From Candidatus Curtissbacteria bacterium (GTDB taxonomy: Bacteria; Patescibacteriota; Microgenomatia; Curtissbacterales; GWA2-41-24): a stretch of DNA of 57,631 nt. The translations under genes and the position numbers were made by a program. The notes under the pieces were generated by a model, which had not been told where the DNA came from, made no database searches, and was given only the letters and a program-made list of their open reading frames with translations. The stretch's first letter is position 1. Each line of letters opens with the position of its first letter. Shown one piece after another: positions 55,107-57,341 of this stretch. The stretch spans positions 210,524-268,154 of the forward strand of contig JANLHP010000017.1 in assembly GCA_024654445.1 (NCBI GenBank), written 5' to 3'.

Positions 55107-57341
55107 TTATTCTAAACTGACCATTGTTTTTAAGAATTCTGCTGACCATCGGTAAATATTATGGTTTCTCACTGAACTTCGTAATTTCTTCATTCGCTTT
55201 GTCTGTTCAGATGAAGTCATTTTGAGCGCAGTATGGATTGTCTCAGACGTTTGCTCTCCGCTATATGGATTCACAATCAAAGCATCTTTAAATTCTTTTG
55301 AAGCGCCGGTGAACTGGCTTAAAATAAGAACACCTTTCTCGTCATTTCTGGCAGCGACAAATTCCTTAGCAACCAGGTTCATTCCATCATGAAGGGATGT
55401 TACCAGACACAAATCAGCGATCTTATAATACTGATTTAATTCTTCGTGAGTATGGAGTTTTTTGATAAGTACAATCGGCTTCCAGTTTTTAATTCTAAAT
55501 TGTGAATTGACTCGGTCTACTTCTTTTTCTACTGCTTGAGCAAATTCCTGATATTTTTTTATTTTACTCTTTGAAGGCGGGGCAATCTGGATAAAGGTAA
55601 GTTCTTCTCGAAACGACGGATATTTTATAAAGAACAGTTCGATTCCTTTTATACGCTCAAGAATTCCTTTTGTATAATCTAATCGGTCAACGCTAATACC
55701 GATATATTTTGTATCAATGCCAAGGTTTTTCAGAAGCTTTTTACGTTCCTGTGTTTCTTCTTCAGTTACAGCTATCTCTTCATTATTATTAGAAAAAGCG
55801 ATACCCACAGGAAATGGTTTGATAAGGGAAATGTGTTCGTTTCTGGTAACGGTAAATTGCTCAAAATCAATGAGGGACTCAAGCTCCCGTCCGACTGTTT
55901 CTATAAAGTTATTACAGTGCAGCTGCGTATGAAATCCGATAAGATCTGCCCCCAGCATTCCATCTAAAATTTCTTTTTTCTGGGGACAAATACTAAATGA
56001 CTCCGCGCTTACCCATGGAATATGCCAGAAAAGACCGACTGTCGCATCAGGCCTTGCATCTTTGATCATTCGTGGTAGCAGCGCAAAATGAAAGTCTTGA
56101 ATAAAAACAATTGGCTTTTTCAGGTGTTTTATCTCTGACAGTACAGTTTCTGCAAACTTAGCGTTTACTTTTTTATATTGTCCATAATCTTCCTGGCTAA
56201 AAATCGGCCGTGTATGCGCCATGAGGCACAGAGGATAGAGTGCTTCATTTGAAAAACCATAGTAATATCCTTTTTCTTCTTCGTCTGTAAGCCATACTCG
56301 TTTGAGCGTGTATTTTGGATCATTTGGTGGTACTTGAATAGTATCGCTTTTATCAACAACAAGTCTGTCCGCATCTCCGCTTCCGTGAGCAATCCATGTT
56401 CCACCGGTTGCCTGCATGACCGGTTCAATTGCTGTTACCAAACCACTTGCAGGAAGATAATAGTCAATCTTATTGCCATTTTTTGTATGGATGTACGGTT
56501 CTCGATTGGAAACAACAACAATTGTCCGGTCTTTGAGAATATCTTTTGTAAATTGTTTCAACCGTTCAGCAGTCCAAGGAGAATCAAGTTTTTCTAAACT
56601 TACTCGTGCCTCTTCACTTGCTGCGATTCGTGCCTCGAGAAGACTCCTCTGGATATTTGAAATTTCCTTTGTCAGCGGTTGGAATAATAAAGAATTTGCG
56701 AAAAATTTGTTTGTATTACTGTTTCCTGTTCTGGTAGATTTTAATGATTCTGCTAAATTTCTGATTGGTTTAAAGATGAGCCACCGTATTACGAGCAGGA
56801 CAGCAACAGCAGTAAGAAAGATTTGAATAAAAAGTCGTACCAAATTATTTTGCCATATTTCTGTGAGTCTGCTGTCGATATACCCCGCATGCTGCACAAT
56901 CATAAGCGCTCCAACGACGCTTTTTTCATCATGGAGAGGAATTGCTAAAAGATATGTTTTGTTATCATTAAAATCAACAAAGTCGCCATTTGCTTTATCT
57001 CCATCCATAGCGTCTGTTGCAATCTGCTGGGCCTCGTGTATTTCTTTTGGAAGACTGGAGGACACGGCAATGATATTTCCCTTATGATCATATACCGCGA
57101 TGCCTCCGAACCGTTCTCTATTGGCAAATTTCTCTACAACAGCCTGAAGAGACTCGTCTGATTTACTGAGAAAATTAGGTTCAACTGTCTCGCGGAAACT
57201 TTCCGCAAGAAGGGTAGACCGATATTGTAAATCGGTGGTAAGTCTTTGCTCCTCATTACTTGCTTGATTAATAGTAAAGACAATAACAATTAGACTAACT
57301 GTTAAGGCAACTGCTAAAATTGCTGTAATTATCTGTTTCAT
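55107..57341 (-). CDS. otsA: trehalose-6-phosphate synthase (GT20) fused to N-terminal TM-sensor-TM-HAMP-like module
   Basis: catalytic part from ~aa 270: VVVSNREPY, FIQDFHFALLP, LIGFHT, VDRLDYTKGI, LVTSLHDGMNLVAKEF; N-terminus has two TM helices flanking ~150 aa. Confidence 0.8.
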   Translation of the reverse strand: MKQIITAILAVALTVSLIVIVFTINQASNEEQRLTTDLQYRSTLLAESFRETVEPNFLSKSDESLQAVVEKFANRERFGGIAVYDHKGNIIAVSSSLPKEIHEAQQIATDAMDGDKANGDFVDFNDNKTYLLAIPLHDEKSVVGALMIVQHAGYIDSRLTEIWQNNLVRLFIQIFLTAVAVLLVIRWLIFKPIRNLAESLKSTRTGNSNTNKFFANSLLFQPLTKEISNIQRSLLEARIAASEEARVSLEKLDSPWTAERLKQFTKDILKDRTIVVVSNREPYIHTKNGNKIDYYLPASGLVTAIEPVMQATGGTWIAHGSGDADRLVVDKSDTIQVPPNDPKYTLKRVWLTDEEEKGYYYGFSNEALYPLCLMAHTRPIFSQEDYGQYKKVNAKFAETVLSEIKHLKKPIVFIQDFHFALLPRMIKDARPDATVGLFWHIPWVSAESFSICPQKKEILDGMLGADLIGFHTQLHCNNFIETVGRELESLIDFEQFTVTRNEHISLIKPFPVGIAFSNNNEEIAVTEEETQERKKLLKNLGIDTKYIGISVDRLDYTKGILERIKGIELFFIKYPSFREELTFIQIAPPSKSKIKKYQEFAQAVEKEVDRVNSQFRIKNWKPIVLIKKLHTHEELNQYYKIADLCLVTSLHDGMNLVAKEFVAARNDEKGVLILSQFTGASKEFKDALIVNPYSGEQTSETIHTALKMTSSEQTKRMKKLRSSVRNHNIYRWSAEFLKTMVSLE

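Follow-up and report, generated by a model that had tools for sequence, protein, structure and literature searches.

Can a bacterium control the synthesis of a protective sugar with a receptor that is itself the biosynthetic enzyme? This question is raised by a gene of Candidatus Curtissbacteria (Patescibacteriota, class Microgenomatia), which encodes a trehalose-6-phosphate (T6P) synthase of family GT20, the family of OtsA, joined to a membrane sensor-like N terminus. The gene lies at the end of a 57,631-nucleotide stretch of contig JANLHP010000017.1 (positions 210,524 to 268,154; assembly GCA_024654445.1), which we call the window, and the source genome is 1.04 Mb in 33 contigs and is 96.7% complete. 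An initial annotation, made from the letters of the window alone, described this fusion and proposed that it places synthesis of a compatible solute or glycolipid precursor under the direct control of an external signal. Its observation is confirmed, and its interpretation of the N terminus as a sensor is supported, all of its testable predictions having held. We conclude, at odds of roughly two to one, that the protein is a receptor-type T6P synthase, which would sit in the membrane as a dimer and have as its output an enzyme with signal-dependent activity.

In the literature we found no description of a sensor-OtsA fusion. Database proteins of this type are named "trehalose-6-phosphate synthase," to which the JGI automatic name sometimes adds "HAMP domain-containing protein." What is new here is the replacement of otsB by a GT4 glycosyltransferase gene and the accompanying changes in the acceptor site in this lineage.

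A predicted Cache-HAMP module precedes the synthase

Two transmembrane (TM) segments that enclose a sensor domain and lead into a HAMP domain are the usual input architecture of signaling kinases. In a 19-residue hydropathy window, the fusion protein has just two hydrophobic segments, and these are exactly the sequences that had been quoted as TM1 and TM2 from inspection alone. The adjoining charges, MK (one lysine) before TM1 and RW..K..R after TM2, fit a topology in which the N terminus is inside, the loop is outside, and the C terminus is inside.

The loop had been taken for a sensor, and the predicted structure agrees. An AlphaFold2 (AF2) monomer model of residues 1 to 270, built from a 50-sequence alignment (predicted local distance difference test [pLDDT], 83.6), consists of helix 2-58, helix 62-71, two strands, helix 102-114, three strands, and helix 153-205, which after TM2 continues into the cytoplasm and is followed by loop 206-217 and helix 218-253. 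In this model, residues 1 to 270 form a single-Cache/PDC fold followed by a helix-loop-helix. The top Foldseek match in the PDB is a TM-Cache-TM-HAMP model of the histidine kinase WalK (9a5d_A; E 1.8e-11, TM score for the query [TMq] 0.69, 266 columns), and the next are crystal structures of the Staphylococcus aureus WalK extracellular domain (4ywz; TM score for the target [TMt] 0.74 to 0.76). Further matches are the sensor domains of KinD, DcuS, and CitA, and the Foldseek probability is 1.00 for all four proteins. The element order and size are the same as in WalK (YycG of Bacillota), whereas sequence identity to it is 16 to 20% and the output differs, being a glycosyltransferase in the fusion and PAS-DHp-CA kinase domains in WalK. 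Pfam matches among 50 family members are weak but mutually agreeing: SMP_2 in 31, sCache_3_2 in 17 (best E 1e-8), dCache_1 in 17, Cache_WalK in 9, and HAMP in 5 (best E 1.7e-4). In the ESM Atlas the segment falls among sCache_3_2 and HAMP clusters, and there is a weak 18-bit NCBIfam match to DgcN/YfiN over residues 13 to 206.

The description of the segment after TM2 as HAMP-like is also borne out. When the family profile was compared by hhalign with residues 185 to 275 of Escherichia coli Tar, it aligned with Tar residues 202 to 265 (the end of TM2 plus HAMP) without a gap over 64 columns (probability 84.5%, E 6.9e-6), with P192 on the HAMP proline of Tar. A proline at the start of amphipathic sequence 1 (AS1), a glycine at its end, and a glutamate at the start of AS2 are what we take to be the hallmarks of HAMP. 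Conservation of the corresponding P192, G206, and E226 is 94%, 85%, and 91%, respectively, across 121 relatives with a median identity of 32%, and the 50-sequence alignment shows no variation at P192 or E226. These similarities give moderate support to HAMP homology of the linker region.

The distances between these landmarks are as well conserved as the landmarks. W163 and P192 are 29 residues apart in 97 of 100 relatives, E226 and W256 are 29 or 30 residues apart, and W256 and N279 are 23 residues apart in 62 of 64 relatives. Length variation is confined to the HAMP connector (P192 to E226, 32 to 37 residues). We place the fusion point near residues 250 to 255, because stand-alone GT20 relatives have an N-terminal counterpart of the sequence that begins at about residue 260 and because residues 241 to 251 are poorly modeled while helix 258-269 is confident in the full-length AF2 model.

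The GT20 domain appears catalytically intact

The catalytic domain had been called complete, and it is: the Pfam Glyco_transf_20 match extends over residues 274 to 739 and profile positions 3 to 470 of 473. Residues 273 to 744 align end to end with structures of Tps1/OtsA, which are the best solved relatives (E 2e-73 to 1e-50; E. coli, 1gz5/1uqt; Candida albicans Tps1, 5hut; Mycobacterium thermoresistibile, 5jij). In an alignment with OtsA of E. coli MG1655, all donor and catalytic positions are kept (G22=G300, H154=H440, R262=R553, K267=K558, D361=D652, and E369=E660), as are four of the five glucose-6-phosphate (G6P) contacts (R9=R280, Y76=Y360, D130=D416, and H132=H418). The fifth, R300, which is the sole residue in the C-terminal domain that touches the acceptor phosphate, is lysine in the window protein (K591), and W85 is tyrosine (Y369). 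The roles of the donor, catalytic, and acceptor residues have been described for mycobacterial OtsA (PMC6879718). Residue conservation thus points to an intact catalytic domain, which would most likely make T6P from UDP-glucose and G6P. The source genome encodes GalU (347 bits, above the cut-off).

These two parts suggest how the protein would work. A WalK-like single Cache domain outside the cell would take an external or envelope cue, and the signal would pass through TM2 and HAMP and then along a fixed-length helical linker into the first strand of GT20, where the acceptor-binding Arg280 lies and after which comes the Gly300 loop. The counterpart of this loop in the mycobacterial enzyme moves by up to 12 Å when the active site closes (PMC6879718). 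In this way, an external cue would set the rate of protective-sugar synthesis with no transcriptional step.

Described OtsA and Tps1 enzymes are soluble, whereas the fusion has 270 additional N-terminal residues with two TM segments, a Cache domain, and HAMP. For the design as a whole, the initial wording of a "one-component" system was loose, and the better comparison is with receptor cyclases. In HAMP-coupled diguanylate and adenylate cyclases, one chain likewise combines a membrane sensor and HAMP with the catalytic domain that they drive, and there is no phosphorelay. However, those enzymes make second messengers in a dimeric active site, whereas the output of the fusion is a metabolic GT-B enzyme. 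Since the active site of the fusion lies within one chain, its coupling mechanism must differ from that of the receptor cyclases.

Layout of the locus

The initial coordinates of the gene are right, and the gene lies on the minus strand; the plus strand over 55107-57341 is full of stops. The features are collected in Table 1. Given the 7-bp gap between the two genes, the fusion gene and the GT4 gene are probably cotranscribed. A promoter and terminator scan around the operon gave nothing above shuffled expectation, and 53300-57631 contains no tRNAs. Just downstream of the GT4 gene are genes for a small HIT-family protein (53368-53706, minus strand, E 3e-16), a homologue of which is also close to the fusion gene in locus L045, and for a SET-domain protein (52369-52977, plus strand, E 4e-20).

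Table 1. Features of the fusion gene and its downstream neighbor, in window positions
Feature	Position	Strand	Basis or remark
Sensor-HAMP-GT20 fusion open reading frame	55107..57341	-	744 aa plus stop, ATG at 57341; full-length AF2 model pLDDT 83.9
TM1, residues 4-24	57270..57332	-	Hydropathy; continuous with long first outer-domain helix (AF2 helix 2-58)
Extracytoplasmic single Cache/PDC-like domain, residues 25-169	56835..57269	-	AF2 fold, Foldseek, weak Pfam matches
TM2, residues 170-190	56772..56834	-	Hydropathy; W163-P192 spacing
HAMP-like domain, residues 191-240	56622..56771	-	AS1 P192-G206, connector, AS2 from E226
Linker, residues 241-272	56526..56621	-	Low-confidence hinge 241-251, then conserved SPWT..RL motif, helix 258-269
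GT20 (OtsA-like) catalytic domain, residues 273-744	55110..56525	-	Pfam E 4e-113
Acceptor-site change K591	55569-55571	-	Alignment with E. coli OtsA
Acceptor-site change Y369	56235-56237	-	Alignment with E. coli OtsA
GT4 glycosyltransferase, 381 aa	53954..55099	-	Glycos_transf_1 E 1e-21; 7-bp gap downstream of fusion gene

The family neighbors otsB, and a sub-lineage has a GT4 gene instead

It had been noted that no otsB adjoins the fusion gene and that the next gene encodes a GT4 transferase, which is correct for the window. We compared the neighborhoods of 21 Microgenomatia loci, the window included. The gene directly downstream of the fusion encodes OtsB (PF02358, E 1e-33 to 1e-41) in 13 loci, a GT4 in 6 (GT4-type loci, among them the window), and another protein in 2. 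A hydrolase resembling MGH1, GH63, or trehalase occurs in six of the loci: directly after OtsB in three, with one gene between in two, and in a GT4-type locus in one. Among 75 loci of the high-GC soil relatives, 22 have OtsB directly downstream, and a recurrent gene order is fusion-OtsB-DUF5752-TreT-like GT4, in which the GT4 is a different protein from that of the window. Because OtsB neighbors the fusion gene both in Microgenomatia and in the high-GC loci, the fusion family is embedded in trehalose metabolism, and gene context suggests that, taken as a whole, the family represents an ordinary trehalose pathway whose input is unusual. The enzyme's product would, in most relatives, go to the adjacent OtsB and become trehalose.

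Two observations concern the neighbors of OtsB-type loci. In soil metagenomes, a DUF5752 protein (E 1e-52 to 1e-60) is encoded between OtsB or the sensor-OtsA and the TreT-like GT4 (L097:7139-7816, L146:6387-7043, and L132:6311-7003), and DUF5752 may be a component of the trehalose pathway. In two loci (L043:8276-9889 and L046:8205-9896), OtsB is double the usual length (537 and 563 aa), with a C-terminal half of about 280 aa that has no Pfam match.

Whereas otsB directly follows the fusion gene in most relatives, its absence in GT4-type loci is a derived state of a sub-lineage. In a tree, five of the six GT4-type proteins form a single clade that also includes one OtsB-type sister (support, 1.0); the sixth falls elsewhere. 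In four GT4-type genomes (94 to 100% complete), PF02358 has no match, while an OtsB-type control genome has one. In the source genome, searches for otsB, treY, and treS, which the initial annotation had recommended, found none: the best PF02358 match has 18 bits (cut-off, 27) and is on a HAD-IIB-like protein, and there is no GH13 domain and thus no TreS, TreY, or TreZ. There is also no TreT_GT1 domain and no PF01204 trehalase, and there is one weak MGH1-like hydrolase. The HAD-IIB-like protein (319 aa; G000:C7) was considered as a general substitute for T6P phosphatase and rejected, as its occurrence is limited to the same taxonomic family and it is missing from the other GT4-type genomes.

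The GT4 of the window sits where the relatives have otsB. Its closest solved relative is the glucosylsucrose synthase (GSS) of Thermosynechococcus, TeGSS (7fg9/8x3q; E 4e-34, residues 26 to 376), which transfers alpha-1,2-glucose from UDP-glucose onto sucrose and thus adds glucose to a nonreducing disaccharide (PMC9909042). The R179 and K184 with which TeGSS binds the UDP phosphate (GRxxPEKG) are kept, as is the E-x7-E motif; identity is about 30%, and the N-terminal region of TeGSS with Trp10 and Tyr18 is unaligned. The next-closest solved relatives are tetrahydrobiopterin glucosyltransferases, and all of these enzymes use small soluble acceptors. For this reason, and because no lipid-linked or membrane glycosyltransferase signature was found in the GT4, the glycolipid alternative of the initial proposal, for which we found no support, was rejected. 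Assignment of this GT4 as TreT was rejected as well, since it has no TreT_GT1 domain and reaches only 34 bits on the TreT model.

Orthologues of the GT4 (at least 45% identity) are present in 12 of 400 class genomes, 7 of which also carry the sensor fusion. In one genome (G607:C14), the fusion is 91% identical and the GT4 is 84% identical to the proteins of the window. This genome is in a different GTDB family (f8 versus f1 for the window) and the flanking genes differ, which suggests recent lateral transfer of a two-gene fusion-GT4 unit within the class.

A GT20-GT4 pair also occurs without the sensor. GT20 was found in 51 of 401 class genomes (this count, and no other, takes in the unpublished G451) in three forms: the sensor fusion, a T6P synthase-phosphatase (TPS-TPP) fusion of about 750 aa, and a stand-alone protein of about 500 aa. 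The stand-alone proteins are the sister group of the sensor fusions. They adjoin a GT4 in 8 of 11 loci, in one of which it is orthologous to the window GT4 at 46% identity, and PF02358 is absent from all five tested genomes with a stand-alone GT20 beside a GT4. At the position of the acceptor-phosphate residue Arg9, 7 of 11 stand-alone GT20s have alanine or glycine. Based on these loci, a GT20-GT4 pair with altered acceptor-phosphate residues and no OtsB appears to recur in the class. In seven stand-alone proteins (L070 to L074, L076, and L077), "IIAADA" replaces "VVSNR" and Arg9 is gone; these may be a branch with an acceptor other than G6P.

Has the enzyme of the window sub-lineage also changed its acceptor? 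The alternative is that its GT20 is no longer a T6P synthase: it would use another acceptor and, jointly with the GSS-like GT4, make some other soluble glucoside or oligosaccharide, while the sensor functions as proposed above. Lysine and tyrosine at the positions of K591 and Y369 are confined to the GT4-partnered clade: the lysine is in 4 of 6 GT4-type fusion proteins and in 0 of 20 other sensor fusions compared, and the tyrosine is in 3 GT4-type proteins. The lack of a PF02358 match in GT4-type genomes and in those with a stand-alone GT20-GT4 pair, the loss of Arg9 from stand-alone GT20s, and the lack of TreS, TreY, TreZ, TreT, and trehalase in the source genome are in keeping with this alternative. 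However, a lysine can still bind phosphate, R280, Y360, D416, and H418 are intact, and two GT4-type fusions (L050 and L055) keep R300 and W85, which shows that the gene swap can occur without the substitutions. OtsB could also be replaced by an unspecific phosphatase, and the HAD-IIB-like protein is present in the source genome, although it tracks taxonomy rather than GT4 type. We regard a changed acceptor as possible, though on balance doubtful. With OtsB missing and the acceptor site altered, the end product in the source genome is uncertain; where a GSS-like GT4 has replaced OtsB, it may be a glucosylated derivative of trehalose or the product of a shifted acceptor instead of plain trehalose. 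An idea that we put forward more tentatively still is that the sensor-coupled GT20 and the GSS-like GT4 form an OtsB-independent pathway to an undescribed glucoside (for example, a glucosylated form of trehalose or of trehalose-phosphate, or the product of a non-G6P acceptor), the output of which is set by an extracytoplasmic signal through HAMP.

Proposed signal control compared with a possible membrane tether

Several observations weigh against a receptor-type T6P synthase. On the window protein itself, Pfam Cache and HAMP scores are below the gathering scores (dCache_1, 15 to 17 bits with a cut-off of 45; SMP_2, 19 to 20 bits with a cut-off of 28.9). Conserved positions in the outer domain are mostly structural (G80, P135, G144, and W163), and no conserved polar pocket residues could be named there among the 121 relatives. 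The outer domain of WalK acts partly via partner proteins, so that resemblance to it does not imply a small-molecule ligand. Residues 241 to 251, between HAMP and the enzyme, have a pLDDT of <50 in the full-length AF2 monomer, and a rigid helix at this position is not demonstrated by the model. On the enzyme side, the score on the NCBIfam OtsA model (TIGR02400) is 420.7 bits with a cut-off of 564.85, although this is well above the score on the glucosylglycerol-phosphate synthase model (GgpS), which at 278 bits is also below its cut-off. With K591, Y369, and the lack of OtsB, the acceptor of this particular protein is uncertain. Finally, the case for signal-dependent regulation is argued from architecture.

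Alternatively, the N terminus might be a degenerate former sensor that now merely anchors and dimerizes the synthase at the membrane, placing sugar synthesis beside an exporter or the envelope, with no control by a signal. The few conserved polar residues of the outer domain, the subthreshold Cache and HAMP scores, and the poorly predicted hinge all fit such a tether, which is the main rival to the receptor-type synthase. However, an anchor needs neither P192, G206, and E226 nor linker lengths that are nearly invariant among relatives of about 30% identity labeled as coming from several phyla. The outer domain is kept as a Cache domain that is predicted to fold confidently in all members, and no transporter is conserved beside the gene in either the Microgenomatia or the high-GC loci. 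The conservation of HAMP hallmarks and spacing leads us to disfavor the tether, which we consider unlikely.

The fusion is authentic and widespread

Database searches recommended by the initial annotation show that the fusion is conserved and has relatives labeled as belonging to other phyla. Among at least 120 database matches listed for the full-length query, identity is 63 to 92% and nearly all are full length, at about 744 aa; the close homologues are named Daviesbacteria, Levybacteria, and Gottesmanbacteria (Microgenomatia within Patescibacteria). For distribution we used the 270 N-terminal residues as the query. Two clear and two weak matches came from an evenly drawn sample of 400 phylum genomes, and about 28 strong matches came from 400 other genomes of the class. 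Almost all of the latter lie within an open frame of about 745 aa, and they cluster in a small number of families, such as f8 with 14 of 29 genomes. A contig scan with the same residues gave only two close loci. A metagenome scan gave at least 595 stretches, the 80 loci kept have 45 to 71% GC, and distant full-length members carry the source labels Acidobacteriota and Methylomirabilota/Rokuibacteriota.

That an assembly or gene-calling artefact joined a sensor gene to an otsA gene can practically be dismissed: the start codon is 290 bp from the end of both window and contig, but no support for an artefact was found, and the same single stop-free frame, with constant domain spacing, recurs in the class genomes, the 80 metagenome loci, and the full-length database proteins.

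The start codon itself differs in one close relative. In a 91%-identical orthologue from Daviesbacteria (MFDD01000014.1), the position of the window's ATG is a leucine codon (L008:8001-8003) that is not ATG, GTG, or TTG. The frame is open from this codon, and one has to go 92 codons downstream, into the Cache domain, to reach the first standard start. Either the leucine codon serves as a rare start codon or it reflects a sequencing or variant change.

The N terminus searched against 1.8 billion cluster representatives gave 675 matches. When ten long matches were scanned for domains, eight had GT20, one had a GCS2 ligase domain, and one had no recognized output. The GCS2 protein, P0181 (690 aa, from a Logan metagenome), has a TM-Cache-TM-HAMP homologue (31% identity, residues 4 to 232) fused to a domain of the glutamate-cysteine ligase family, and by its domain content it appears to be a second case of this module driving a metabolic enzyme.

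Implications

The known outputs of HAMP and Cache modules are kinases, chemoreceptors, cyclases, and phosphatases. If a metabolic GT-B glycosyltransferase is driven directly by such modules, this receptor-enzyme logic would extend to compatible-solute synthesis, and a new mechanistic question would arise, namely, how the rotation of HAMP helices gates an enzyme with a monomeric site. The protein is easy to express, which makes the question directly testable. The family is large, as the metagenome stretches indicate, and relatives carry the labels Patescibacteria, Acidobacteriota, and Methylomirabilota. Within it, the replacement of otsB by a GT4 gene, together with the acceptor-site changes, points to an unexplored branch of GT20 chemistry. 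If the OtsB-independent pathway is true, it would provide the first glycosyltransferase under HAMP control and, in bacteria of the candidate phyla radiation, a new protective sugar. For Patescibacteria, which have tiny genomes and few regulators, posttranslational control of a stress sugar by an outside cue would fit a life attached to a host or exposed to drying.

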